Source of the DNA: a virus
Length of the DNA stretch: 64,000 nt
Reading direction: 5' to 3' (one strand)
IMG/VR virus record: IMGVR_UViG_3300024239_000013
Coordinates: 33,142-97,141 of that record
Shown here: in pieces, positions 32,999 to 57,490 of the stretch
Numbering within the stretch: position 1 is the stretch's first letter
How the letters are laid out: each line of letters opens with the position of its first letter
Made by a program: the position numbers and the translations under genes
Notes under the pieces: model-generated
The model's input: the letters and a program-made list of their open reading frames with translations, nothing else
Told to the model about the DNA's origin: nothing
The model's database searches: none

Positions 32999-33427
32999 TT
33001 ATTTTATTTTTTTCCAAGAAATTTCAAAGTTTTTTATGTGTGGATCGATTGGAACTAAATCTATACTACACAATTTAACGATTTTGATCATATTTTCCAT
33101 AGAAATCTCGCCGAAAATAGTCGGCCTAAATATGGCTTTACCGCTTTCGAGTAAATATTTTGTGATATTAAAGTTTTCCTTATTTGCAAATTCAATATCT
33201 GCAACCCAAAACCCATCTTCCAGATACATATCTCTGGTAAAGTGGTTAACCTTATCGCTTCCTTTAATTTTGATGCCTTCAGTGCTCTTAATATGTACAA
33301 CCAAACCTTCTAAACATCTTTTTGATTTTTTAAAATCTTGAATTATAGAATCGATTTCGGAATCAGTATAATAATATCCATATTGATTTTTTTTACCAAC
33401 TTCTGCTATAGGATATTTTATTTTCAT
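32999..33427 (-). CDS. hypothetical protein
   Basis: 142-aa ORF. Confidence 0.5.
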   Translation of the reverse strand: MKIKYPIAEVGKKNQYGYYYTDSEIDSIIQDFKKSKRCLEGLVVHIKSTEGIKIKGSDKVNHFTRDMYLEDGFWVADIEFANKENFNITKYLLESGKAIFRPTIFGEISMENMIKIVKLCSIDLVPIDPHIKNFEISWKKIK

Positions 33428-38166: not shown

Positions 38167-38625
38167 TTAATTTTCTGATATTTGACTTGAAATCTTTTTA
38201 ACTTTACCAATATCCGCTCTTCCTTGATATTTTTTATTAAACTCACCGATGGTTTTACCTATTAGCGCCTGCTTATTGGTAATCACGTTTTTAAAGCTTT
38301 TCATAATTTCTGAAAGTGCCTCTTCAACCTCTTTATCCGACATTTGTGCTGGCATATAATTTCTAAGAACTGAAGCTTCTGCAGATTCCTTTATAGCCAA
38401 ATCATGTCTTCCGTTTTTTTCAAAGATTTCAATTGACTCTTCCCTTTGCTTGATTGCCTTGTTAATTATTTTAAGAAAATCAGCATCTGTCATTTCCACA
38501 TTTGGATTTGATTTTTCTGCAAGTGTAATTGCTGATTTTACACTACTCAAAGCTGCCTTAGCATCATTGTCCTTATTCTTCATTGCAGATAAAAAATCTG
38601 CATTTACCCTTTCTTTAATTGTCAT
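38167..38625 (-). CDS. YqeY/GatB-domain protein
   Basis: Full-length similarity to the YqeY family (MKxxDxxAKxALSSxK..., KQREESIEIFEKNGRHDLAxKE, YMPxQMSDxE, GRADIGKV). Confidence 0.65.
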   Translation of the reverse strand: MTIKERVNADFLSAMKNKDNDAKAALSSVKSAITLAEKSNPNVEMTDADFLKIINKAIKQREESIEIFEKNGRHDLAIKESAEASVLRNYMPAQMSDKEVEEALSEIMKSFKNVITNKQALIGKTIGEFNKKYQGRADIGKVKKISSQISEN

Positions 38626-39457
38626 CTATCTTTGTTTTTAAAGTATTTCTAATAAAATCTCTTTCCTGTGTAAATATTGGGGTTTCTACAACAGACCATT
38701 TATTCCTTTTGTATGTTTCTCCATTTTCTATGTTATTCATAGTAACCTGAATTTTTTTAATTACCGCCCCCCTTTTTTTTCGGAAATCATAATCATTCCA
38801 GTTGATCCCCTTCTGAAAAATCATTTCTTGCAACTGGTCAGTTTTTACCCCATTTAATTGATTGTGACTATAAAGACTTTGTGCCACCGAAGAGATGCTA
38901 TTCCTTACTGCATCTTGTTGTCTCCAGATAAAGTAGTTTTCGACCTCATCTATAAAAGGGATTTGAAATGCTCTGGCATCGAACGTAGCAAGTTTGAAAT
39001 TTTCAATTTCAGATTCTTTTAAAAGATTTCCATCGTAATTCATCGAATGATTAGCAATTCCAAATTCATTACAAAACCTTTTCATTCTAAGTTGATTAAA
39101 TTTTGCTGTAGCCATAGATGATGCAACAGAAACCATTTTTTGCAAGTTATTATCAAACCATGCATGTGTTCCAAGATCGTCGAAATCTGTTAGTAAAAGA
39201 CTTATCTCATCTGACTGAACGTAACCTAACTTGGTTCCTTGTATGTTTTTGCAGAGATAAACTGTTGTCTCATTCATGTCTTCAATTAGACCTTCGTCAA
39301 ATGGACGTTCTAAACCTTTAGTGTAGGTGTGAAATGCTTTCCCGTCGATCCTGATGATCGTGTAAGTTCTTCTTGGGAGCTTGATCCTTGTTCTATCTTC
39401 GTAGAACTCTTTCATTCTGTCGCCTAATGCGTCTTTCATAATATTTGCTTTATGCAA
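38615..39457 (-). CDS. Thg1-like protein (tRNA-His guanylyltransferase family 3'-5' nucleotidyltransferase)
   Basis: GDRMKEFYE, IIRIDGKAFHTYTKGLERPFDE and YVQSDEISLL match the catalytic core of Thg1 and bacterial Thg1-like proteins. Confidence 0.75.
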   Translation of the reverse strand: MHKANIMKDALGDRMKEFYEDRTRIKLPRRTYTIIRIDGKAFHTYTKGLERPFDEGLIEDMNETTVYLCKNIQGTKLGYVQSDEISLLLTDFDDLGTHAWFDNNLQKMVSVASSMATAKFNQLRMKRFCNEFGIANHSMNYDGNLLKESEIENFKLATFDARAFQIPFIDEVENYFIWRQQDAVRNSISSVAQSLYSHNQLNGVKTDQLQEMIFQKGINWNDYDFRKKRGAVIKKIQVTMNNIENGETYKRNKWSVVETPIFTQERDFIRNTLKTKIDDN

Positions 39458-39538
39458 CCTTCAATAGTCGGATGCTGATTAATATTTATTTATAGATTAT
39501 TTTTTATAAAAGTTCCTTTAGTAGTTTAATTTTTTTCA

Positions 39539-40066
39539 TTATGTATGAATTTTTTTTCCAACCAACCCACATAAAAATTCTGAAACCAATTCTGCCTCTG
39601 GATTCCTCCAAGCATGATTTAAGTAAACGTCGGCCTTATCGTGATAATGGTAATAATTTGAATCTAAATGTCTCTGTGCAGCCTTTGCTGTTAAGAATGA
39701 GTTGATATAAACTGGTTCCATTGAATATGTACATTTTTCTAATTCCGGAACATTTTCTTCAATCCATTCATCTAGTTCAAATCCAAAATCATCGTCCCAC
39801 ATTTCTTTTAGATTATCTGGCTCGTCTACTCCTTTTTCTATAAGATATTCTCTAAATTCCTCAAATTCTTCTATTACTTGGAAATCACCATCTCTGTCTA
39901 TCCAACAGCGGGTATCCCCATTTAAGTCCCAATCATATACTCTTCGCCAGTCTCTTATTTGAAAAATATGAGGCATCCGTGTACATCTTGGATCCTGTGT
40001 TGTCATTTCAGTAGCAAGTTCTATTAGCTTATCGTACATTTCGTCACTAATCTCTATATTTTTCAT
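39539..40066 (-). CDS. hypothetical protein
   Basis: 175-aa ORF. Confidence 0.5.
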   Translation of the reverse strand: MKNIEISDEMYDKLIELATEMTTQDPRCTRMPHIFQIRDWRRVYDWDLNGDTRCWIDRDGDFQVIEEFEEFREYLIEKGVDEPDNLKEMWDDDFGFELDEWIEENVPELEKCTYSMEPVYINSFLTAKAAQRHLDSNYYHYHDKADVYLNHAWRNPEAELVSEFLCGLVGKKIHT

Positions 40067-40652
40067 TATTTAATTCTTGATTTTCAATAAATTCTAATGT
40101 TGCTGCATAAGCAGATCCTTTAAAAACATCGTCTTTCGTCTCTTTTATTGCTCCTTTAAAAAGTCTCTTGAACTCATCAAATCCCTTGTTTTTTAAAATG
40201 ATAAGTCCAACCCCCATTACAGTTTTTGGTCTATCCACTCCGGTTTCTCTGACTATTTCGTCAGCTATATTTTTTATCTCCTCCTGATAACTTGGTTTTA
40301 TGTTATCTAGAGCATTTTCAAGAGCACTATAGAAGCAATTCTCTTCATTTATCAATCTACCTTTGAATGATAAGGATCCGTTGGAGTTTCTAGATATATC
40401 CATATAATAATCCCTATCATCTCTTTCTTCGTGGTCGATTACTCTATATAGAGAATCCTTATAAACAAAATACTCTTCAGTAACATATCCCTTTGAAAAA
40501 TTAGAATGATTAAATTTTTCCGCAAATTCAAAAATCCAATTTTCGCTCAATTCATAACCGAATCTTTTTGCTATGTATTTACAGGTCTCTTCTAGAGTTC
40601 CTTCTAGTTTAACCGGATATAATTTTCCAGTATGAAATTCAATTTTTTCCAT
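40047..40652 (-). CDS. hypothetical protein
   Basis: 201-aa ORF. Confidence 0.5.
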   Translation of the reverse strand: MEKIEFHTGKLYPVKLEGTLEETCKYIAKRFGYELSENWIFEFAEKFNHSNFSKGYVTEEYFVYKDSLYRVIDHEERDDRDYYMDISRNSNGSLSFKGRLINEENCFYSALENALDNIKPSYQEEIKNIADEIVRETGVDRPKTVMGVGLIILKNKGFDEFKRLFKGAIKETKDDVFKGSAYAATLEFIENQELNNEKYRD

Positions 40653-40655
40653 TTT

Positions 40656-41174
40656 TTATCTGTTATAAATCACAACTGTTACTTTGCAATCTGTTATATT
40701 ATTGTGTATAATTTCCTTTATTCTTTCCCAATTTCCTCCAGCTAAACCTGAGCCTATTTTTGGCATCCCTATATGTTTCCCTTTAAAAACCATATTTAAT
40801 TTTCTCATGCATATGGTAAATGCTTCATAATCAAAAGGTATTCTAACCCCATCTTTATGATTCATCCCATATCTAAATTGTGTATACGCATTAACAACGG
40901 TTAGCTCTGGTTCGTTCCTATTGTTTTTGGCATCTTCCAAAGACCATATTGATCTTTCACCCAATACGAATGTCTGGTAATCTATATTACCTAATTTTTC
41001 TATGGAAGGACCGATTCTTTCCATATTGAATTTATCAGCTCCAAATGCCTTTGCCATCTGTGGAGCAATTCCAGCTCCCATTGTCGATTGACAATTACAA
41101 CCATGAACTATAACATCAAAATTTCCTTTTTTGGCCAGATCTATTAAATCCCCATATATTTCTTTGTATTCCAT
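40656..41174 (-). CDS. macro-domain protein (ADP-ribose binding/processing)
   Basis: VIVHGCNCQSTMGAGIAPQMAKAFG resembles the macro-domain N-x-x-N-x-x-L-G-G-G-G-V-x-G-A-I nucleotide-binding loop; about 170 aa as expected. Confidence 0.5.
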   Translation of the reverse strand: MEYKEIYGDLIDLAKKGNFDVIVHGCNCQSTMGAGIAPQMAKAFGADKFNMERIGPSIEKLGNIDYQTFVLGERSIWSLEDAKNNRNEPELTVVNAYTQFRYGMNHKDGVRIPFDYEAFTICMRKLNMVFKGKHIGMPKIGSGLAGGNWERIKEIIHNNITDCKVTVVIYNR

Positions 41175-41335
41175 GGTTATTATTTTCTCCTGTTAAAACC
41201 AGATATTTTAGCTATCACAAAAAAAGGAACTATTATTGCATAAAATTCCCAATTTAAGAAACTAATTCCACCAAAAAAAGAAAGAGCAGCTCCTAGATAA
41301 ATTGGGCCGGATAATTCTAATAATTTTTTCATAAC

Positions 41336-42013
41336 TTATTTTATTTCGTCTATTAATGTTATTTCTGCTGTTTCGTAATCTATTCTGTAAATACCCTTAG
41401 GAACATCCTGATTTTTCCAGTTATATCTATTCTCTATTACAATGCAACTATTTCCTTTGATGATTGAAGAACTATTTTCGAATATTCTCTCTCCTCTTCT
41501 TAGGTCATATATTCCTCCATTAACACTGGCTAAATTTCCGCCCAAATGATATATTGTTTCTAAGCCTCCTGCATCTAGACAAACATCACCTAATCGATTA
41601 ACTACTACGTGATCTCCAAAGCCTTCGAATTTTAATGTTTTTTTACTTTTGTCTTGTATTCTGTTTCCGTATCTTAATAGCGTGCAATAGCCATCCACAA
41701 ATCCGTTTGTTCCGATTCCACCTTTTCTGAAAACTTCACTTGAAATTTTCAACCCGTTGTGGTATAGATACGAGTACCCTAATTTATTTTCCAAAGGTTC
41801 TCCTTTATCGTTTAATTCCTCAATAGGTCTTAGTTCATATCCTTCTTTCAGATCTTGATATTTAGATTCAATCTTCGATGGTTTAATTCCTTCCAATAAA
41901 TTTGATATCAGATGTAAATTAAGAGACTCACTTTTAACAAGTCCAATAATATCTGGATTCATATCAAAATAATTAAATTTTGGATTTTTATTATTATTTT
42001 TCGACATATTCAT
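41336..42013 (-). CDS. hypothetical protein
   Basis: 225-aa ORF. Confidence 0.5.
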   Translation of the reverse strand: MNMSKNNNKNPKFNYFDMNPDIIGLVKSESLNLHLISNLLEGIKPSKIESKYQDLKEGYELRPIEELNDKGEPLENKLGYSYLYHNGLKISSEVFRKGGIGTNGFVDGYCTLLRYGNRIQDKSKKTLKFEGFGDHVVVNRLGDVCLDAGGLETIYHLGGNLASVNGGIYDLRRGERIFENSSSIIKGNSCIVIENRYNWKNQDVPKGIYRIDYETAEITLIDEIK

Positions 42014-42392
42014 ATTTGATTTTCAGAATTCTGTATATAAAATTAGCTTTTTCTATATCTTCTCTGGATTTTGCTAAATCTAATAGATCCTGGAATTCTT
42101 TATCGTATATTTTTACTAGATCTTCTCTAGATTCAGCATCTTCAATCATTTTTTCTACTTTCTCGAAAAAGTTTAAGAATTTAATTCTATCACGAGAAAT
42201 CGAAATTATAGAGATTGACAAAATGCTTATAAAAATTCCCAAGGATAATCCAATCTTTAGGTTTACTAACATTGAAAATTTGGAATCCATTATCGAAAAT
42301 AAAGCAAAAGAATAAATAGATGAGATGAGCCACATAACAATAAAAATTTTAAATAAGCTTGATTCCATCAAGAATGCTGAGAATTTTTTCAT
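41994..42392 (-). CDS. membrane protein (three or four hydrophobic helices)
   Basis: 132 aa, strongly hydrophobic. Confidence 0.45.
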   Translation of the reverse strand: MKKFSAFLMESSLFKIFIVMWLISSIYSFALFSIMDSKFSMLVNLKIGLSLGIFISILSISIISISRDRIKFLNFFEKVEKMIEDAESREDLVKIYDKEFQDLLDLAKSREDIEKANFIYRILKIKYEYVEK

Positions 42393-42403
42393 AATGATTG
42401 TAT

Positions 42404-42847
42404 TTATATTTTGATCTCTCTATTAATATCTCTTTCTATATCTCTATTTTTAATAACTTCCCTTTTATCATAGTTCTTTTTACCCCTAGATAAAGATATC
42501 TCTAATTTAAATAAGGACCTATCATTTTCATAAATTCTGCAAGGAACTATACTCATACCTTTTATTAGATCCTTTTGGAGTTTATTAAGCTCCTTTCTTT
42601 TTAATAAAAGTTTTCTATCTCTTTTTGGATTGTGTGAATAGTTTGGGTTCGTCGATGATATGTGTAGGTTTCTTATGAAAAGTTCATTATTTATAAAATA
42701 GCAATAAGAATCTGTAAAATCAATTCTATTTTCTCTAATAGATTTTACCTCAGATCCAACCAATTGAATCCCTGCATCTAATTTTTTTATAAATTCAAAT
42801 TCAAATTTTGCTTTTTTGTTAATGATATTTATTTTTGATGGTTTCAT
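42404..42847 (-). CDS. smpB: SmpB (SsrA/tmRNA-binding ribosome-rescue protein) homolog
   Basis: End-to-end collinearity with bacterial SmpB: KFEFEFIKKLDAGIQLVGSEVKSIRENRIDFTDSYCYF..., RKLLLKRKELNKL, GMSIVPCRIYENDRSLFKLEISLSRGKKNYDKRE. Confidence 0.75.
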   Translation of the reverse strand: MKPSKINIINKKAKFEFEFIKKLDAGIQLVGSEVKSIRENRIDFTDSYCYFINNELFIRNLHISSTNPNYSHNPKRDRKLLLKRKELNKLQKDLIKGMSIVPCRIYENDRSLFKLEISLSRGKKNYDKREVIKNRDIERDINREIKI

Positions 42848-45716: not shown

Positions 45717-46454
45717 TTATTTCTCCTTTAGCAAGAATGAATTAGAAATGGATTTGAAAGATATTGTTTTATCCTTGTTTCTAATAACCACTCCTTCTCT
45801 CTCCGCTCCATTGTATAGTTTTGATTTACCCTCTGCGTAAAGAAGAATTTCATCGACAGTTTCTGGTAGGCTATAATTTTCCTCGAGCACAGGAACAAGT
45901 TCAAGTGGTTTATCGTCATTATTAACTTTAGATAGGAATTCCCTCATTTCATCTAATCCTAGATATTCTTGAGTGTCAATATTGAAAATATTGAAAACTC
46001 TAAGAGTATGCCCTTTTATTTTATATGGATTCCCTTGAATTCCTTCACCGATAAGTTCACCCTGGATTGCGTAATTTTGATTAAGAGATCCTAGTTTTTC
46101 TGCTATCTTTAGCTCTCTAGCAACCTTCCAGAATGTATTTTCTTTTTTGGTTCTTTCGACACCATCTTCACCAATGATAGTACCAGGTACAAATTCTCCA
46201 GGATCCGCTAACTCAAGGTTTCTTGAACAGACTCCGAAAACTCCGTCTTTTAAATAGAAGGTTGCGGAACTTCCGTCTAGTTTTTCAGTCACATAAAACC
46301 TTTCAGTCTTCCAGCCCTCGTACTCTTTGGTTAGATTTTGACAGTTATGTACTAAAATATCGTTTGCATAGAAGTTATGAACTTTATCTACTTCAATGTC
46401 ATAACGTTTTGATTCATGATTTATCTTCTTAATAGATTTAATTTTATCTAACAT
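45717..46454 (-). CDS. C-terminal half of a fractured polynucleotide ligase. The C-half of a split intein (residues 1-37, ...KVHNFYANDILVHN; about 46344-46454) is fused to an Rnl2-like nucleotidyltransferase domain starting at Cys+1 (CQNL...VTEKLDGSSATFYLKDG)
   Basis: Split-intein C-half-like terminal HN followed by Cys; KxDG adenylyltransferase motif I, motif IV GEGIQG and motif V REGVVIR in the extein. Confidence 0.7.
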   Translation of the reverse strand: MLDKIKSIKKINHESKRYDIEVDKVHNFYANDILVHNCQNLTKEYEGWKTERFYVTEKLDGSSATFYLKDGVFGVCSRNLELADPGEFVPGTIIGEDGVERTKKENTFWKVARELKIAEKLGSLNQNYAIQGELIGEGIQGNPYKIKGHTLRVFNIFNIDTQEYLGLDEMREFLSKVNNDDKPLELVPVLEENYSLPETVDEILLYAEGKSKLYNGAEREGVVIRNKDKTISFKSISNSFLLKEK

Positions 46455-47416
46455 AGTATTTCTTTTAAAAGGTTATAGATTTCTTCGTTTGTCATATTAT
46501 TAATATCACTCTCCCAAAAATAGTGAACTGTATATCCTTTAGATTCTATAAGCTTACGTTTCCGATTGTCTTTCTTCCAAACATCCTTTGCTAAAAGACC
46601 ATCTAAAAGAACGTCAGACTCTTTATAGAACTTAGGATTAGCATGCCAAAAGTCACCTTGAACTTCTATGATAACTTTATTCTTAAATATCAGATCCCAG
46701 TTATATGCATATAGAAATCCGTTTGCCGTATATTCTACATCTAATTGATTTAGTATTGTCTGAATTCTGATCTCTTGACTACTTACATAATTTATATTAG
46801 CTCTTGCTTTTTCTGTCATCCGCCTGCGTTCATCCGCCGTCATTTTAGATATTCTTTTCTTCTGTGACTCTCCAATCTTCACCGAAACACCTGGGATTTG
46901 AGAAGGATTATAAACGCTATCTCCGTATTTTTTGATAAGAGTATCTCTTATAGATTCTTGGGCCTTTTCATAGTCTATATGTGACTGTGCAACCTTCCGT
47001 ATCTTTGGGTTGCAGAAGTTGTTCTCATATCCAAAGTTCTTTAGGAACGTCTCTTTCTTTTTTTTCTTGATGGCTTTAGCCTGTGATGGATTCTTAACCC
47101 CAAACCGTTTCATATTAGTAGACTCAATCTTATCTTTATAAACCTTGGTCTTTTTGCTTTCGCTATTAGTTCGTTTAATCCCAAGTAATTCGATATAATT
47201 TGCAAATGAAACCCCATACATTTCTTTAAGATCAGAGACATTATAACCTTCAAGATATAGATCCTTTACCGTATCGAAGGTTCTATCTTCTATTTCTATT
47301 TGAGATTTAATGTAGTTTACCTCATTTGTTAATTTATTAATGTTGTGATGTCTATTAATGTGTATTTTTAATATGTTCGTTTGATTGAATTCTTTATTGC
47401 AGATAATACACCTCAT
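46448..47416 (-). mobile_element. free-standing homing-endonuclease-like gene located between the two ligase halves; N-terminal C2H2 zinc finger (CIICNKEF...HINRHH) plus C-terminal Vsr-like/DUF559 PD-(D/E)xK nuclease domain (IIEVQGDFWHANP...KDNRKRKLIESKGYTVHYFWESD)
   Basis: Motifs read in the translation; genomic position matches the fractured-gene arrangement. Confidence 0.6.
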
Positions 47417-47490
47417 AATAAGTTTCCTTTTATTTATATATCTCTTATTTATATAAAAAACAATAAATAATCAGTCTTTTTAATAACTTT

Positions 47491-48300
47491 TTAGGTTATT
47501 TTAACGGTTTCATTACCTAAAAGATCTCTAACTTCTCTGAAGCATTTTAATTCAGGAAGCCAAATACGATGATTTCCAGTAGCTTTAATAGTCTTACCAG
47601 ACTCTAGTTCAATCATGTACCAATCGTTATTATTCTTTTGAATAGAATGACTGTTAATGGAGTTCATTTCATTTTCATCAGTTATAGTATTGTATGATAG
47701 AACCTTACCTGTATACTTTGACTCACAGATTTCCTTGATAGTCATTGGACCGTCTTCTGTGTTAACAATAACATCTTCAGACAAGCATCTTTCTTCATCA
47801 GTCTTTCTGATAAATGACGGGAAGTATCCCTTAACCTTTCCTGCTAGCTGTGCTGGAATAGGAGGTTCGTATTTTATGATTCCGAGAAGATCTGTTACAT
47901 CTAGACCCTCTTCTATAACAATAGAACCACCAGTCCCCAATTGTAATTTGTCTCCTTGTGGTTGTTTGCTAATTCCAACGACCATTTCTTTTTCACTTCT
48001 CAAAGTAGATAAAGGCAATAAAAGCCCTTGACTTAATTCTTGTCTAAGTCTAATAGTCTTTAATCTAAATCCTTCAATGTCCCCCATTTTTTTATATGAG
48101 GATTTTCTTAGAAATTCGAATTTTTCATCAATTGGTAAGAATGAATCAACTTCACAATAAATAGCCAATTCTCCCTCCTTATATTCTCCAATTCTAGTTA
48201 TAACTTTCCATCCACCAATATGACAAATCTCAAGTGAGTCTGCATTGGGATGTTTAGTTATTTTATCAATTCTCTTTACTGATGCTAATTTTCTTTCCAT
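47491..48300 (-). CDS. N-terminal half of the fractured polynucleotide ligase. N-extein (residues 1-171, with a tRNA-binding-domain-like OB N-terminus KHPNADSLEICHIGGWKV) is fused to the N-half of a split intein (residues 172-269, CLSEDVIVNTEDGPMTIKEI...IKATGNHRIW...; about 47494-47787)
   Basis: The intein N-half is collinear with DnaE split-intein N-halves (CLSYETEILTVEYGLLPIGKI...IRATKDHKF...); the ORF terminates right after the intein block. Confidence 0.7.
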   Translation of the reverse strand: MERKLASVKRIDKITKHPNADSLEICHIGGWKVITRIGEYKEGELAIYCEVDSFLPIDEKFEFLRKSSYKKMGDIEGFRLKTIRLRQELSQGLLLPLSTLRSEKEMVVGISKQPQGDKLQLGTGGSIVIEEGLDVTDLLGIIKYEPPIPAQLAGKVKGYFPSFIRKTDEERCLSEDVIVNTEDGPMTIKEICESKYTGKVLSYNTITDENEMNSINSHSIQKNNNDWYMIELESGKTIKATGNHRIWLPELKCFREVRDLLGNETVKIT

Positions 48301-50721: not shown

Positions 50722-51773
50722 CTATTTTTTAAATCTATTAAAAGAATTGACGGTGATCAAATTCCATTTAACTTTACCTATAAAATAATTAAGACTCCTT
50801 GAATTTGTGTAACTCATTGCAGAACTTAAATAGCTTTTTAAGTTATCAACCCATCCGTTGATTGTATATTCAACCGGCTGCATTCTAGTAACACCCTCGC
50901 TAGTTTTAAGTACAGTTTTACCCATTGCTAACTGTGCCTCCTTGGTACTCATTCCTCTGAACTTCTTAAACATTTTGGTTCCGAAGTTAAATAGCTGTTC
51001 AGTTTCCTTGGAGTATTGATCTACTCTTTCTCCAGGCTCTGTCCACCCTTCTTTTTTATTGTTTGCAAGATATGTTTCCCCGCACTCTCTAGAGCTTTAT
51101 TTAATATAGACCCAAGCATAATATAATCTGCTCCTAAAGCCAATCCTTTAATAATATCAGAATAACTTTTAAATCCACCATCAGCAACTATTTTTGAAGG
51201 ATTCGTTAGAGATTTTTTAATTCGATAACACTCATCAATTAGTGATGCCATAGGATAACCGATACCTGTCTGAACTGTAGTAAGACATCCTCCCCCATTA
51301 CCAATACCAATTCTAATATAATCTGCTCCGGCATCTGAAAAAATCTTATATGTTTCAGGATAAGCAACATTCCCGACCATTAATACTAAATCTTCTCCGT
51401 ACATATCTTTGCCTTTTTTGACTAGATCTAGTAATTTAGTCATATGGCCGTTAGCTATATCGATAAGAATATAATACTTTCCCTCTCTCTTATTTTTAAT
51501 AAAGAGTTCTTCGAATTGGTCCATTCCAATAGCTCTAAAAAAATCGAAAGATGTATTTTCTAAATTGGAATCAGAATATTCGGTCCTTGGCATTATTACT
51601 TTGATTCCTGCTTTAAGGAAGAAATCTTTATTTTCTTCACAAATTACAGTATCCATAGGTGCTGTAAAAAGGGGAAGATATCCATCCTCATATAAAACAT
51701 TAACTTCTTTTCTTGAAGTAATTTCGCTAATCGTAGCGGGAGTAATTAAAATATCATCAAAATCAAATTTCAT
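50722..51773 (-). pseudogene. GMP reductase / IMPDH-family (beta/alpha)8 enzyme interrupted by a -1 frameshift at a GGGGAAA tract (about 51085-51095). N-part is track ORF 51021..51773; C-part continues in the -1 frame through KMFKKFRGMSTKEAQ...EGVTRMQPVEY to 50722
   Basis: N-part carries the conserved GIGNGGGCLTTVQTGIGYP and ADGGFKSYSDIIKGLALGADYIMLGS blocks; hand translation of the other frame restores the canonical ...ESxGE-x-Y...RGMSS...EGKTV C-terminus. Confidence 0.6.
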
Positions 51774-53350: not shown

Positions 53351-53755
53351 TTAATAATGTAAATCAATAAATAAAAAATCCTGATCGTCTTTATAGCTAA
53401 CACAACTCCAAGCAGGATGATATTGTTCTTTCAGCTCATCCCCAATCTCAATAATATTCGATAATGGATCCTCGATATCATATTCAGGTTCAAGACCACA
53501 TTCTCTTCTTTTAGATTCTTTTAAAAGATTTTCATTCATTTTTTTTGCTGAATGATAGGTAACACCTTCCTTTAGATAAACCCCCCAATCATTTCTTTCG
53601 AAATAAAAGTCCTCAACCCTCTGTATCATTATTTTTGCGTCATCTGGGATTCCATTTTTCTTTACGAATTCCTTTAGCCCACCAACAGTCAAATGCTGTT
53701 TATAATTCTTAATATCTTCTTTTGTGAGTTTTTTAATATTATTTTTATTCCTCAT
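53351..53755 (-). CDS. hypothetical protein
   Basis: 134-aa ORF. Confidence 0.45.
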   Translation of the reverse strand: MRNKNNIKKLTKEDIKNYKQHLTVGGLKEFVKKNGIPDDAKIMIQRVEDFYFERNDWGVYLKEGVTYHSAKKMNENLLKESKRRECGLEPEYDIEDPLSNIIEIGDELKEQYHPAWSCVSYKDDQDFLFIDLHY

Positions 53756-54150
53756 TTTTTTCTAAATTTAACATAGTTTTCTAAATATGAGGAGATGTTT
53801 TTTCCTCCTGCAGGATTCATAGAATGAACCAAATATTCAGGAAGATCCAAATCATTATCTATACAATAATCAACCAACCACTTTGCACAATCTAACCCAG
53901 TTTTTTCTTTAAATCTTTTGTACAATTTATTATAAGAACCCCCGTACATTTTTGGAGAGTAATGCTCATCAGCGAGGTCATGATCAAAAGAAATTATCTT
54001 AGGAAGACCTTTTTTGATGATGTAATCAACAAACTCGTCATAGTTTCTAACGATTACCCATTCCAATTTAGAATATATTGGGAGCTTCATATACTTTATA
54101 CAGTCATAAGGATGTCTAAAATCATCCAGAAATAAATTGTAATTCATCAT
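53752..54150 (-). CDS. hypothetical protein
   Basis: 132-aa ORF. Confidence 0.45.
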   Translation of the reverse strand: MMNYNLFLDDFRHPYDCIKYMKLPIYSKLEWVIVRNYDEFVDYIIKKGLPKIISFDHDLADEHYSPKMYGGSYNKLYKRFKEKTGLDCAKWLVDYCIDNDLDLPEYLVHSMNPAGGKNISSYLENYVKFRKK

Positions 54151-54161
54151 TATTTTTCCGT

Positions 54162-54542
54162 TTATTTTATTTTAATAAATAAATTTCCTGATTCTATAGA
54201 GGAAATACACAATAAATATTCAACCAATGTGATTTTTTTATTGTTTATTTCCATGTAAATTGAGTTTAGAAGAACTCTATCACTAAATGTTCCACCAAAT
54301 TCGTCACACTTTAGAATTATCTTAGTGTTCTTACCAAAAATCTCTGTTCCGAGGTCAGTTAAAAGATCCCTTGAAATATTAAAACTTATAGTTTTATGTG
54401 CATATCTAGCAAATACCCTTAGAATAGATCCACGAAGTTTTGTTTTAAAGATTTCCAGAATTGGGGATTCTCCTAGCTCTTCATAGCTCATATTATAATT
54501 TTCGAGATCCTCTTTTTTTATATTGAAATCTATGGTAGGCAT
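54162..54542 (-). CDS. hypothetical protein
   Basis: 126-aa ORF. Confidence 0.45.
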   Translation of the reverse strand: MPTIDFNIKKEDLENYNMSYEELGESPILEIFKTKLRGSILRVFARYAHKTISFNISRDLLTDLGTEIFGKNTKIILKCDEFGGTFSDRVLLNSIYMEINNKKITLVEYLLCISSIESGNLFIKIK

Positions 54543-54543
54543 A

Positions 54544-55284
54544 TTATCTGAACCAGTTTATCATACCATCCCACATTGCATCTCCGTGATTTATAGCCCC
54601 AAAATCGTAAAATTCCTCAATTCCAGATTCATCAAAATCCCTATCTTCTTCTGTGTAATATTCGGATTTTTCTAGAGTTTCTATTGGATTTTTTCTTTCC
54701 TTGTAATATTTCCACCATTCTTCTTTAGAGATATTCTCATAATCTGGATATATTGAAATTTCACCGGGATTATATAGACTAGGTTTAACCTTAGCAGGAA
54801 GACCATAGTACCATATCTTTCTGTCAGTCTCATTTTCAGGGTTTATGAAATTGTAAGGATGTTCTAATAGTTCTATAGTTAAAGCTTGAGCTTTCGACAT
54901 TGCATAACCAAGATCTCTAGAAGCAAATGAATATATCAATTTACCATTTGCATAGATTTCACATTTACCATTAGCCCTTAAATCATATTCATCCCACTTA
55001 TGTTTCAGATAATTATTTTGTTTATATCTGATTTCCCAACAAATTCTATTATTGCCTTTATTTATATAAGGAGTAAGTTCTCTTTCGAAATTAATCTCAC
55101 CTCTTACAGGTTCTTCTGTGTGATCTAGCCACCAAGTTGTTGGTGAATCATTCATTTCTCCTAATACATGGTGATATCCGTCTATGTCGTAAACCGTACA
55201 TAGTCTATCGTCCAAATATACGTCAAAAGCTTTTCTTACTTTATATTTTTCCCTTGCTTTGCTTATAGTTAAATATTTCCCCAT
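54544..55284 (-). CDS. hypothetical protein
   Basis: 246-aa ORF. Confidence 0.5.
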   Translation of the reverse strand: MGKYLTISKAREKYKVRKAFDVYLDDRLCTVYDIDGYHHVLGEMNDSPTTWWLDHTEEPVRGEINFERELTPYINKGNNRICWEIRYKQNNYLKHKWDEYDLRANGKCEIYANGKLIYSFASRDLGYAMSKAQALTIELLEHPYNFINPENETDRKIWYYGLPAKVKPSLYNPGEISIYPDYENISKEEWWKYYKERKNPIETLEKSEYYTEEDRDFDESGIEEFYDFGAINHGDAMWDGMINWFR

Positions 55285-55288
55285 ATTT

Positions 55289-55708
55289 TTATAATTCTAT
55301 TTCAAATCTATCTTTCATTTTTCTTATAGATTCTTCAGGAACCTCGTGAACATTAGTTCCCCCGTGTCTGTTCTCTATAATTATACTAGTTACCATATAA
55401 CCATATTCCTTTGCCAATTTGAAATATGGTTCCATTTCCCATTCTTGTGTAAATGTATTGGAAACTACTATTTCTGGATAATATCGAGAGTTTTGTTTAT
55501 TCTCTTTCATTCTATTCTCAACCTCATTTCTACACCATTCATGTGCAGCTTTTAATTTAGAAGGATTGAAATTATATTCCCCAGTTTCTTTATCGTAGAA
55601 ATATTTGTCAGCCTCGCATATTTCACAATCATTCCAAAGATGTCTTGCGAATGTAGATTTACCAGAGCCAGGTACACCTCTAATTAAAAATAGTGTAGGA
55701 TTCAACAT
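55289..55708 (-). CDS. polynucleotide 5'-kinase (T4 Pnk kinase-domain-like P-loop protein)
   Basis: LIRGVPGSGKSTFARHL versus T4 Pnk TIGCPGSGKSTWAREF; LAKEYGYMV versus T4 FAKEYGWKV. Confidence 0.65.
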   Translation of the reverse strand: MLNPTLFLIRGVPGSGKSTFARHLWNDCEICEADKYFYDKETGEYNFNPSKLKAAHEWCRNEVENRMKENKQNSRYYPEIVVSNTFTQEWEMEPYFKLAKEYGYMVTSIIIENRHGGTNVHEVPEESIRKMKDRFEIEL

Positions 55709-55741
55709 TTTTGTGGATTTTTTTAGATTTAATTTATTAAA

Positions 55742-56386
55742 TTAATTTTCCATGTGATGGTCTTTAGGTAGGACAAGAGTCTTTATTGGTCTGCCTTTTA
55801 AAATACCTAAGATCTCGTCTAGACTATATGGCTTTAAATCGTTACCATCAACTCCTACATCCATTGCTCTCCCCGAATTTACCTTTAAATTAGGTGGAAG
55901 ATGAACGTGTCCATGCAGATGTGGAACTCCCCTCCCCATATCTTCCCAGCTAGCAACAGGGAAGTGACTGCAGAAAAATTTGTATTTTTCAGTTTCTTTA
56001 TCCCGAGGTCTTCTTATTTCTAAGATATCATAGAATGCAACTTCTTTGAATATCTCTTGAATACCTTCTCTATTATTTTTTATGTGATGATCGTGATTTC
56101 CAAGAAATATGATAATATTCTTACATTTTATTTGAGATCTAAATTGTTCTATGGATTCAAATCCACCAAAACTCCAATCCCCTAAGTGGACTAAATAATC
56201 ATTCTCGTCAACATATAAATTTATTCCGTTAACAAGAGCGGAATTCATTTCCCCTAAGCTGTGGAAATCCCTAGTTCTGCTGGATTTATCACTCCAAGTT
56301 GAAACTCCTCGACAAATATTCTGGTGTGAATAGTGAGTATCGCTAGTAAACCAAATTTTCTGGTTCTTTTCTAATGTTATTTTCAT
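55742..56386 (-). CDS. calcineurin-like metallophosphoesterase (candidate 2',3'-cyclic/3'-phosphate end-healing phosphatase)
   Basis: WFTSDTHYSH, GDWSFGG, GNHDHH and HGHVH metallophosphoesterase motifs; sits between the kinase and Rnl1 genes, as in bacterial Pnkp. Confidence 0.6.
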   Translation of the reverse strand: MKITLEKNQKIWFTSDTHYSHQNICRGVSTWSDKSSRTRDFHSLGEMNSALVNGINLYVDENDYLVHLGDWSFGGFESIEQFRSQIKCKNIIIFLGNHDHHIKNNREGIQEIFKEVAFYDILEIRRPRDKETEKYKFFCSHFPVASWEDMGRGVPHLHGHVHLPPNLKVNSGRAMDVGVDGNDLKPYSLDEILGILKGRPIKTLVLPKDHHMEN

Positions 56387-56392
56387 AATTAT

Positions 56393-57490
56393 CTAATCTT
56401 CTGTTTTATTCCAAAATGGTTTTTGATATTTGGGTCTTATCATTTTCCAGATTTTTTCTGAATAGTCATTCCCATCATAGAACATAAATAAAATACTTGT
56501 TATATCTCTATCTTGTTCTTTTGCCCATTCTGCAAATTCCTTCCTTCCTTTATCTTTTTCAAAATCTGGTCTTTTTTCAAAGAAGCTCTTGTAAATATCG
56601 TTTACTCTTTCCTCTATTGATGAATAGTTATATTTCAATTCTTTTATTATTTTCTTCACCCAAAGATCAAATTCATCAGGAACCCTATCCAAAAAATTAC
56701 CAAGATCCTGTTTATTTTTTAAGAGCTCCCAGATATCCACATTCGAGAAGTTTGTCAATAGTCTATGTAATCTAACATATTCCTCGCCTTTTATTTTCAT
56801 TCTGAATCCGGAAGAAAATCTAATAACGAAACCCTCGGAATTTGAAGATATTATTTTTTTAAGCTCTTTGTAATTATTAAGACCGTCATATTTTTTAACT
56901 ACTTTAAACCCTATAGTTCCTAGAATACCCTGGTTTTTTAAGTTCATTAAGCTTTTTTCGTCAGAGTGAATATCATATTCATATCCATCTAAATTATCAA
57001 TAACTGAAAGTAAAATGATATCCTCAAAATCATAGCTAACAACTATTCGATTTTCTGGGTAGATAATCTCGAATAAATAAGTGCAATCTTTCAACAAATC
57101 CTTATAATGATATTTCTCCAATATAGATCTTCCCCTTATCGCTTGCTCTGAAGTGAATGATCCTTTTGTAGCAAAATGCCATTCCCCTTCGTAATTGAAA
57201 AGTATACCCAAGGATCCGTCCATCTTCTCGAAAACATCAAAATTTTCGTTCGGAATATCGCTAGAATCCAATTCTTCTAAATTAAAGAATTTAGGAAATG
57301 TCCTTGCAACGACATTTCCTTCCCTATCAAGAACCGTCCCTCTCATATTAAGAGTGATTTCATCCCACTCTTTAGAGAATTGGCACTCTCTTGAATAGTT
57401 ATAAATATCCAAAGGTAATGATGGATGAGAATTTTTTTCTAAAAGACCTCTTTCAATATAGGAATTGAGAATATTTATATCGTATTTCAT
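56393..57490 (-). CDS. RNA ligase 1 (T4 gene 63 / Rnl1-like tRNA repair ligase)
   Basis: Collinear with T4 Rnl1: MRGTVL (CRGIMF), FPKFFNL (PMEKFFNL), motif I EKMDGSL (KEDGSL), ATKGSFTSEQA (FKSKGSIKSEQA), EIIYPENRIVVSY. Confidence 0.75.
   Translation of the reverse strand: MKYDINILNSYIERGLLEKNSHPSLPLDIYNYSRECQFSKEWDEITLNMRGTVLDREGNVVARTFPKFFNLEELDSSDIPNENFDVFEKMDGSLGILFNYEGEWHFATKGSFTSEQAIRGRSILEKYHYKDLLKDCTYLFEIIYPENRIVVSYDFEDIILLSVIDNLDGYEYDIHSDEKSLMNLKNQGILGTIGFKVVKKYDGLNNYKELKKIISSNSEGFVIRFSSGFRMKIKGEEYVRLHRLLTNFSNVDIWELLKNKQDLGNFLDRVPDEFDLWVKKIIKELKYNYSSIEERVNDIYKSFFEKRPDFEKDKGRKEFAEWAKEQDRDITSILFMFYDGNDYSEKIWKMIRPKYQKPFWNKTED

Follow-up and report, generated by a model that had tools for sequence, protein, structure and literature searches.

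How does a phage make an RNA ligase when the gene for it lies in pieces that are parted by a gene for an endonuclease? The question is raised by a stretch of 64,000 nucleotides (nt) of the IMG/VR virus record IMGVR_UViG_3300024239_000013 (positions 33,142 to 97,141 of that record; the whole stretch is called the window in what follows), which carries three consecutive open reading frames (ORFs) on its minus strand: ORF A (47491-48300), ORF B (46448-47416) and ORF C (45717-46454). A first interpretation made from the letters alone, here called the sequence-only reading, had claimed three ORFs at precisely these positions. It had taken them for a ligase N-extein fused to an intein N-half, a zinc-finger/Vsr-like homing endonuclease, and an intein C-half fused to a KxDG ligase domain, a fractured gene in short, and this held on every computational test. 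Very probably the locus is a fractured Rnl5 RNA ligase gene, in which a mobile cassette of a split class-1 intein and an EDxHD homing endonuclease gene sits directly after the Arg codon of the sequence RKTDEER.

The anatomy is plain. ORF A (269 amino acids, aa), which opens 3 nt past the stop of the gene before it, first encodes a 171-aa N-extein (47788-48300). This extein is made up of the OB N domain of an Rnl5-family ligase, a linker and the first part of the nucleotidyltransferase (NTase) domain, and ends in ...FIRKTDEER. ORF A continues with a 98-aa intein N-half (IntN; 47494-47787) that holds Cys1 in CLSED (block A) and TGNH (block B) and is directly followed by the stop codon (47491-47493). 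An AT-rich spacer of 74 nt (47417-47490) lies 5' of ORF B, a free-standing putative homing endonuclease gene of 322 aa with a C2H2 finger (aa 3-24), DUF7487 helical repeats (approximately aa 95-190) and an EDxHD/Vsr-like nuclease domain (approximately aa 212-322). ORF C (245 aa) begins before ORF B has ended: its ATG and the stop codon of ORF B share a 7-nt overlap (ATGTTAG). Its first 37 residues form the intein C-half (IntC; 46344-46454; MLDKIKSIKK...NFYANDILVHN), after which the +1 Cys opens a 208-aa C-extein (45717-46343 including the stop codon; CQNL...) with the NTase domain and its motifs I, III, IV and V.

To which enzyme do the two exteins belong? Residues 1-171 of ORF A match PF21189 (PHA02142 OB fold, E 3e-34) and positions 2-149 of TIGR02306, while residues 38-245 of ORF C match positions 144-341 of the same profile and PF09414 (RNA_ligase, E 2e-29); the latter match and the motif EKLDG confirm the catalytic domain that had been proposed for ORF C. 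PHROG 968, annotated as 'RNA ligase', matches both halves. In a phmmer search against the Protein Data Bank (PDB), the N-extein aligns with chain residues 5-150 of NgrRnl from Naegleria and the C-extein with 151-338 (E 2e-29 and 7e-34), so that the extein junction is exact, with zero residues lost or duplicated. As the chain index is the native numbering plus one, which was checked by Lys170 and Asp172 in KLDG, the break falls between NgrRnl Arg149 and Val150. The last residue of the N-extein is therefore the counterpart of Arg149, which in NgrRnl contacts the gamma phosphate of ATP (PMC7261155). The positions of Arg4, Asp53, Lys121, Thr145 and Arg149 are all on the N-half, the first three being the OB-domain residues that orient the pyrophosphate (PMC7261155). 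Counterparts of Lys170, Asp172, Glu227, Glu312 and Lys326 are conserved in the alignment and all lie on the C-half (for their roles see PMC7261155). The catalytic lysine of motif I is Lys58 of ORF C (nt 46281-46283). Judged by this alignment, the intein sits inside the ligase active site, a location typical of inteins. Because the OB domain, Thr145 and Arg149 are on one piece and Lys170 with motifs III-V on the other, either half alone should not self-adenylylate.

These matches identify the host enzyme as a putative RNA ligase of the Rnl5/DRB0094 family (TIGR02306), with predicted nick-sealing activity. The sequence-only reading had gone further and suggested a tRNA ligase with an N-terminal tRNA-binding-domain-like OB module. 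The OB module is there and corresponds to the Rnl5 N domain, which helps to orient ATP; tRNA binding lacks support, with PF01588 reaching only E 0.023, and so does the role as a tRNA ligase, since the Rnl5 members characterised so far act on nicked duplexes, sealing them where the 3'-OH strand is RNA (PMC4408790, PMC7261155). The ligase shares with NgrRnl and DraRnl (PDB 5cot; PMC4408790, PMC7261155) the OB plus NTase architecture, an alignment from end to end and the conserved ATP and metal contacts, but differs from them in coming as two gene pieces that would need protein splicing, in a Cys in place of Val150, and in an insertion of about 20 residues in the linker between the OB and NTase domains. 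This insertion (EKEMVVGISKQPQGDKLQLGTGGS; window about 47920-48005, ORF A residues about 100-128) varies among alleles, being present in the proteins P0146, P0168 and P0125 and absent in P0127, and it falls in the region where another ligase gene, at locus L050, is split.

The intein halves are recognised as well, and the matches of the three ORFs lie far outside what chance would give. TIGR01445 (intein_Nterm) matches residues 172-269 of ORF A with 33.1 bits (cutoff 24.5) and TIGR01443 (intein_Cterm) residues 1-37 of ORF C with 36.1 bits (cutoff 15.6), the latter ending in VHN before Cys38. All residues of a class 1 intein are found: Cys1 in block A, TGNH in block B, VHN in block G and the +1 Cys. 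The first half had been described as collinear with the N-halves of DnaE split inteins. The extents given for the two halves, 98 and 37 aa with HN and then Cys, stand, but a close relationship to DnaE does not: when the halves were fused in silico and aligned to solved structures, the best match was NrdJ-1 (8ubs, E 7e-10), followed by the Spl DnaX mini-intein (5.9e-7) and gp41-1 (2.7e-5), whereas the cyanobacterial DnaE inteins 1zd7, 1zde and 3nzm gave E 0.24-0.3. The likeness to DnaE inteins goes no further than the general HINT blocks. The alignment to gp41 and DnaE split inteins that had been proposed as a check thus agreed with the former and not with the latter. In the alignment with NrdJ-1 the break (VKIT/MLDK, the slash marking the split) coincides with the natural split of NrdJ-1 itself, in the loop between blocks B and F that is the normal site of an endonuclease domain. 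A LAGLIDADG domain occupies the equivalent place in P0315, a 719-aa protein with a contiguous intein (LAGLIDADG_2, PF03161, E 1.2e-29) at the identical ligase site (KTDEER/C...THN/CQNL), so one insertion point hosts both classical and fractured forms.

NrdJ-1 and gp41-1 (PDB 8ubs, 6qaz) resemble the intein of the window in more than rank: besides the split position they share the C-terminus ...NF[FY]ANDIL[VT]HN, an IntC of about 37-40 aa, and a basic IntC facing an acidic IntN. Here IntN carries a net charge of -5 and the first 18 residues of IntC one of +4, the acidic/basic complementarity that is likewise seen in the halves of natural split inteins. The IntN sequences are related only distantly, and the +1 residue here is Cys (CQN). 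In NrdJ-1 and gp41-1 this residue is Ser. Taken together, the motifs and alignments point to a class-1 intein that is split at the endonuclease-insertion loop and putatively splices in trans.

If the intein interrupts an otherwise ordinary ligase, relatives without it should be continuous across the junction. With ORF A as query, 49 loci of uncultured phages were recovered from IMG/VR, and every one carries an uninterrupted ligase in which the extein matches meet at adjacent codons. Their junctions come in 31 distinct sequences, each of the form R-K-T-[DS]-E-E-R followed by [I/V]-Q, with Ile in 22 and Val in nine, and this region is the most conserved stretch of the ligase protein; fractured alleles read ...RKTDEER/C-Q-N, with Cys in the place of Ile or Val. 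The sequence-only reading had allowed that contiguous relatives might make the intein blocks look like ordinary extein; what the relatives contain is the opposite, since in 49 of 49 the insert is missing, and the search for intein-less alleles also returned one of 94% identity that lacks exactly the 98 plus 37 aa and the endonuclease gene. A match to Microcystis phage Mic1 that seemed to cover IntC turned out to be an ordinary 339-aa intein-less ligase. Two intein-less Rnl5 proteins (P0335 and P0373) have a Cys at the position equivalent to +1 (KTD[EQ]ER-C-QNL), so a Cys is tolerated there; these residues may have been left behind when an intein was lost precisely, or may be natural variation.

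Fractured alleles are no rarity in metagenomes. N-halves were counted in a search with ORF A, which gave at least 47 clusters at 90% identity (IntN alone as query gave three matches), and C-halves in an exhaustive HMMER search with ORF C, which gave 38 cluster representatives at 50% identity; the two sets were counted separately and are unpaired. Frameshifts or internal stop codons occur in none of them. Across 47 allelic N-halves IntN measures 98-104 aa, Cys1 is present in all 47 and TxNH in 45, while the C-half representatives, classified by motif, carry the ending ...HN/CQN in 38 of 38. At 66-75% nt identity, loci L053, L054 and L055 retain the three ORFs and every catalytic residue, and the ATGTTAG overlap is identical in these and in L052. 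The order IntN, endonuclease gene, IntC on one strand is repeated in L052-L055, L059, L063 and L064; in L059 the same site is occupied with a ligase of 40% and an endonuclease of 35% identity. Mini-intein alleles that lack the endonuclease gene at this site were absent from the best 120 and 150 matches. Purifying selection acts on all parts: the ratio of nonsynonymous to synonymous substitution rates (dN/dS) is 0.05-0.28 where it can be computed, in the intein halves and the endonuclease alike, with synonymous sites mostly saturated. Comparison of these alleles shows that the fractured arrangement is common, old and maintained under purifying selection.

Is the cassette still mobile? Recombination and transfer have left footprints. 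The cassette of 1444 bp (46344-47787; IntN, spacer, endonuclease gene and IntC) is 97-100% identical at the nt level in L063 (SRR16308651) and L064 (ERR6015500), where the remaining ligase exteins are only 45-70% identical to the window in a sliding-window profile and the adjacent genes are unrelated. With about 130 bp of extein per side, the block that is near-identical in other phages spans 46213-47919 of the minus strand; megablast of the block gives 96.9% identity over 1707 nt in L063 and 95.5% over 1769 nt in L064, and identity falls off within about 100-300 bp on each side of the cassette. The reverse picture is seen in L062, whose intein-less ligase (P0146, 380 aa) is 92-100% identical to the spliced ligase of the window over most of its length, except for a divergent tract of about 350 bp (53-78% identity) around the insertion point, beginning about 45 nt upstream of it and ending about 300 nt downstream. 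Gene conversion that is started by an endonuclease and co-converts the flanks would leave both of these patterns. They show that the three-part insert has recently passed between different phages as one unit, in a transfer much more recent than the divergence that separates the host ligases.

Assembly chimerism is unlikely as a cause, because each contig has its own coherent flanks and there are at least two independent assemblies of the version in the window. The metagenomic contig k141_97055 of ENA ERZ27245855 (276 kb) contains the window at 100% identity, and a second, independent run (Logan SRR35939762) holds a copy of it at 99.7%. Gene content and IMG/VR relatives mark the probable source as a large uncultured phage. 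A megablast search of GenBank phages with the 3.3-kb region gave no match, and there is no sequenced isolate to serve as a reference.

What kind of endonuclease would drive such transfers? As a single sequence ORF B gives a weak Pfam match to a C2H2 finger, a match to DUF7487 (E 1.4e-11) and weak matches to Vsr/DUF559. A profile of 45 homologues (24-88% identity) matches the catalytic domain of I-Bth0305I (3r3p; E 1.4e-7) and the Vsr protein of E. coli (2e-4). The AlphaFold (AF2) model of ORF B (pLDDT 94.6) leads to the same two proteins in Foldseek, with 3r3p on top (TM 0.77 on the target) and Vsr second. Residues D241, E251, W257, H258, D283 and E302 are invariant in the 45 homologues and D255 is at least 90% conserved; D241, E251, H258 and D283 pair with Asp196, the conserved Glu of the family, His213 and Asp222 of I-Bth0305I. 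In the finger, C3, C6 and H19 are at least 90% conserved. Domain searches detected no NUMOD motif in the N-terminal region, the C2H2 finger and the DUF7487 helical repeats standing there instead. The zinc finger and the Vsr/DUF559-type nuclease that had been proposed are thus both present, with the correction that the nuclease is of the EDxHD branch of the Vsr fold, the I-Bth0305I type. Profile and model together place ORF B in the EDxHD/Vsr-like homing endonuclease family, where it stands out by another kind of DNA-binding front end; that it cleaves DNA is predicted. I-Bth0305I, the EDxHD prototype (PMC3239194; PDB 3r3p), has the same Vsr-like fold, the catalytic Asp, His and Asp, and a DNA-binding region followed by the nuclease, but it resides in a recA group I intron and uses NUMOD/helix-turn-helix (HTH) elements (PMC3239194), whereas ORF B is free-standing within a split intein and carries a zinc finger and helical repeats.

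A set of 5.8 billion proteins contains 159 homologues of the endonuclease; 185,579 species genomes scanned for ORF B returned only three relatives, weak and partial, so that neither a host nor a prophage can be named. In tblastn searches of GenBank phages the matches to IntN were remote (at most 32% identity) and no full-length relative of the endonuclease was found. In about 30 of the best 80 IMG/VR relatives of the endonuclease an ORF with an IntC follows it, and among the hosts are RNA ligases, NrdJ, helicase-like proteins and an ATP DNA ligase.

From these parts a course of events can be proposed. The locus would yield two ligase polypeptides, the N-half translated just 3' of the preceding gene and the C-half from its start codon within the 7-nt overlap with the endonuclease stop codon. 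IntN, which is acidic, would associate with the basic N-terminus of IntC, and the two would splice in trans, giving a ligase of 379 aa with a Cys where relatives carry Ile or Val, and neither half would adenylylate by itself. The endonuclease, for its part, would cut intein-less ligase alleles of co-infecting phages, and repair from the cassette-bearing allele would then copy in the whole unit of IntN, endonuclease gene and IntC together with some flanking extein.

Several points weigh against this reading. Trans-splicing, ligase activity, DNA cleavage and the target site are steps that we infer. With 112.7 and 66.2 bits the ligase halves score below the whole-protein cutoff of TIGR02306 (151.15), though this is expected for halves. 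The exchange between L062 and the window may have been a gain or a loss of the cassette, and the asymmetry of the co-conversion-like tract, which lies mostly downstream, means that cleavage may occur away from the insertion point. Besides a weak hairpin, the 74-nt spacer contains a Shine-Dalgarno-like AAGGAA and, at 47431-47438 and 47446-47453, two TATAAATA motifs, but TATAAATA is not enriched in the AT-rich window (18 occurrences against 16.6 expected) and the hairpin shows no excess of stability over shuffled sequences (z = -1.04). Late-promoter and hairpin control elements in the spacer, as far as these two counts go, are without statistical support. We also considered the spacer and endonuclease gene as a group I intron whose removal restores a contiguous intein mRNA and rejected the idea, given that only 74 nt are non-coding and that the locus has no Rfam match to an intron-like RNA.

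Could the fracture serve the phage itself? The split may have been co-opted as a timing or dosage switch, with active ligase appearing only once the C-half is made while the endonuclease attacks the RNA-repair genes of competitors. The argument for such a dependence is that the start of the C-half overlaps the endonuclease stop codon and that late-promoter-like TATAAATA motifs lie upstream; we regard the switch as unlikely, though less so than the alternatives below. If it were true, RNA-repair capacity would be gated post-translationally during infection, possibly by redox via Cys1 and the +1 Cys.

Less probable still is that the intein halves no longer splice and merely hold the ligase together as non-covalent association domains, the enzyme working as two chains in the manner of Aeh1 NrdA. 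Genes split by an endonuclease without any intein do exist, both among the cases of Dassa et al. (PMC2677866) and in the present ligase family, where L050 carries a GIY-YIG gene. Docking alone needs none of the splicing residues, however, and Cys1, TxNH, the terminal HN and the +1 Cys are all kept across dozens of diverged alleles; moreover, the gene is broken directly behind Arg149 and so within the active site, unlike a split in an interdomain linker. Aeh1 nrdA/mobE (PMC3045599) does resemble our locus in having a free-standing phage homing endonuclease inside an enzyme gene and overlapping downstream reading frames. It has no intein and its halves reassemble non-covalently, which makes L050 its closer analogue. 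There (L050:5699-7788) a free-standing GIY-YIG/NUMOD3 gene (302 aa) stands between an OB ORF of 132 aa and an NTase ORF of 255 aa, with a 4-nt overlap and the break in the variable linker between OB and NTase.

Alternatively, the endonuclease might be domesticated or inactive, and the shared cassette the product of plain homologous recombination during co-infection, not of homing. Phage genomes are commonly mosaic through general recombination, and a homologue of 57% identity standing free upstream of an intein-less ligase (L056-L058) indicates that the endonuclease is not obligatorily tied to an intein. Against this, the exchanged block has the cassette at its centre and loses identity over about 100-300 bp per side in three independent comparisons, which is the pattern of homing, and no catalytic residue of the nuclease varies among 45 homologues down to 24% identity; we consider this explanation very improbable. 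Weakest of all, and hardly credible, is that insertion of the endonuclease inactivated the ligase, so that the halves are pseudogene remnants in decay and the phage depends on its Rnl1: redundancy is conceivable, with an Rnl1-type ligase and end-healing enzymes about 8 kb away, but decay is contradicted by the intact reading frames in no fewer than 47 clusters of N-halves and 38 of C-halves, the retention of all ligase motifs and ATP contacts, the low dN/dS with its saturated synonymous sites, and halves that are intact even where endonuclease identity is only 32-35%.

A fractured RNA ligase gene with a mobile intein cassette is thus the reading that we prefer, and its architecture is already known rather than unique. 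The sequence-only reading had recognised the fractured-gene arrangement described from metagenomes, and the match to Dassa et al. 2009 (NAR 37:2560; PMC2677866) is borne out by gene order, split loop and Vsr-like endonuclease. Their fractured genes likewise run on one strand from the N-part with IntN through a short spacer and the endonuclease gene to IntC with the C-part, are split at the endonuclease-insertion loop of the intein and are of phage-like origin (PMC2677866). The endonuclease gene overlaps the IntC ORF by 6-69 bp in their set and by 7 bp here, and TATAAATA motifs stand upstream of the endonuclease gene in both (PMC2677866). There are differences as well: their spacers measure 27-51 nt against 74 nt here, and their endonucleases carry NUMOD motifs where ours has the C2H2 finger and DUF7487 repeats (PMC2677866). 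Their hosts were gp41, IMPDH, DnaE, NrdA, NrdJ, DNA ligase, terminase and one unknown protein, that is, functions in DNA synthesis, repair and packaging, whereas the host here is an RNA ligase, an enzyme absent from that list (PMC2677866). In their model the endonuclease invades the intein (PMC2677866); here the data show the whole cassette on the move together with extein flanks. Full-text literature, with subscription journals outside its coverage, yielded no description of a split-intein RNA ligase from phages or metagenomes, and an earlier one is possible. What appears to be new here is the evidence for mobility, namely a cassette shared across diverged ligases and a near-isogenic empty allele.

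RNA ligases are interrupted at other places, too. A second split-intein site in Rnl5 ligases lies directly after the KxDG of motif I (P0196, P0208 and P0215, with the C-halves P0279, P0285, P0332 and P0380), and the +1 nucleophile there is the native Ser of KLDG-SS in some alleles and Cys in others. In L060 (3535-5627) and L061 a related split intein and an endonuclease of 32% identity interrupt a short PF09414 ligase after EKMDGEN, and L077 and L079 are similar cases; one interrupted ligase among L060, L061, L077, L079 and L073 may be Rnl1-like, by a weak match. Judging from these loci, RNA ligases of several families appear to be recurrent targets of one endonuclease lineage. The endonuclease of 57% identity mentioned above stands immediately upstream of an uninterrupted, intein-less Rnl5 ligase in L056 (4001-6037), L057, L058 and L069-L071, this ligase being about 42% identical to that of the window. 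Locus L140 (2772-3743) holds a middle fragment of an NrdJ-like protein that seemingly starts with an IntC (...VVHN/TGVGFS) and ends with an IntN (CLSGDTLIQ...), which suggests a ribonucleotide reductase gene that may have been fractured twice.

Around the fractured ligase the window is rich in RNA-repair genes on the same strand (53752-57490 and 38615-42847). About 8 kb away lies the Rnl1-type ligase (56393-57490), next to a metallophosphoesterase (55742-56386) and a P-loop kinase (55289-55708); a cREC domain protein (about 53752-54147), SmpB (about 42404-42847), a Thg1-like protein (about 38615-39457) and a YqeY gene complete the group, all on the minus strand. The 64-kb window contains no tRNA genes, and the company of Rnl1, phosphoesterase, P-loop kinase, cREC, SmpB and Thg1-like proteins suggests general RNA repair without singling out tRNA. 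Paralogues of the intein or the endonuclease were not found elsewhere in the window. On the same strand, a 250-aa ORF (51021-51773) matches an IMPDH/GMP-reductase profile in its middle only (positions 119-253 of 345), and the near-identical contig L052 has a 261-aa version of it; the product may be a truncated TIM-barrel enzyme or an unusual one.

What does a broken ligase gene tell us about the evolution of such elements? It would extend the fractured-gene phenomenon from enzymes of DNA replication, repair and packaging to an RNA-repair enzyme. A cassette that moves as a unit would be the functional equal of a classical endonuclease-containing intein, a step that had been left to inference in the original model. 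The alleles collected here amount to a large natural collection of varied split inteins with NrdJ-1 and gp41-1 as relatives, two that are among the fastest protein-ligation tools known. Finally, with contiguous LAGLIDADG intein, fractured, empty and intein-less split alleles in one and the same family, these ligases offer a natural series in which the gain, loss and exchange of intein endonucleases can be followed.

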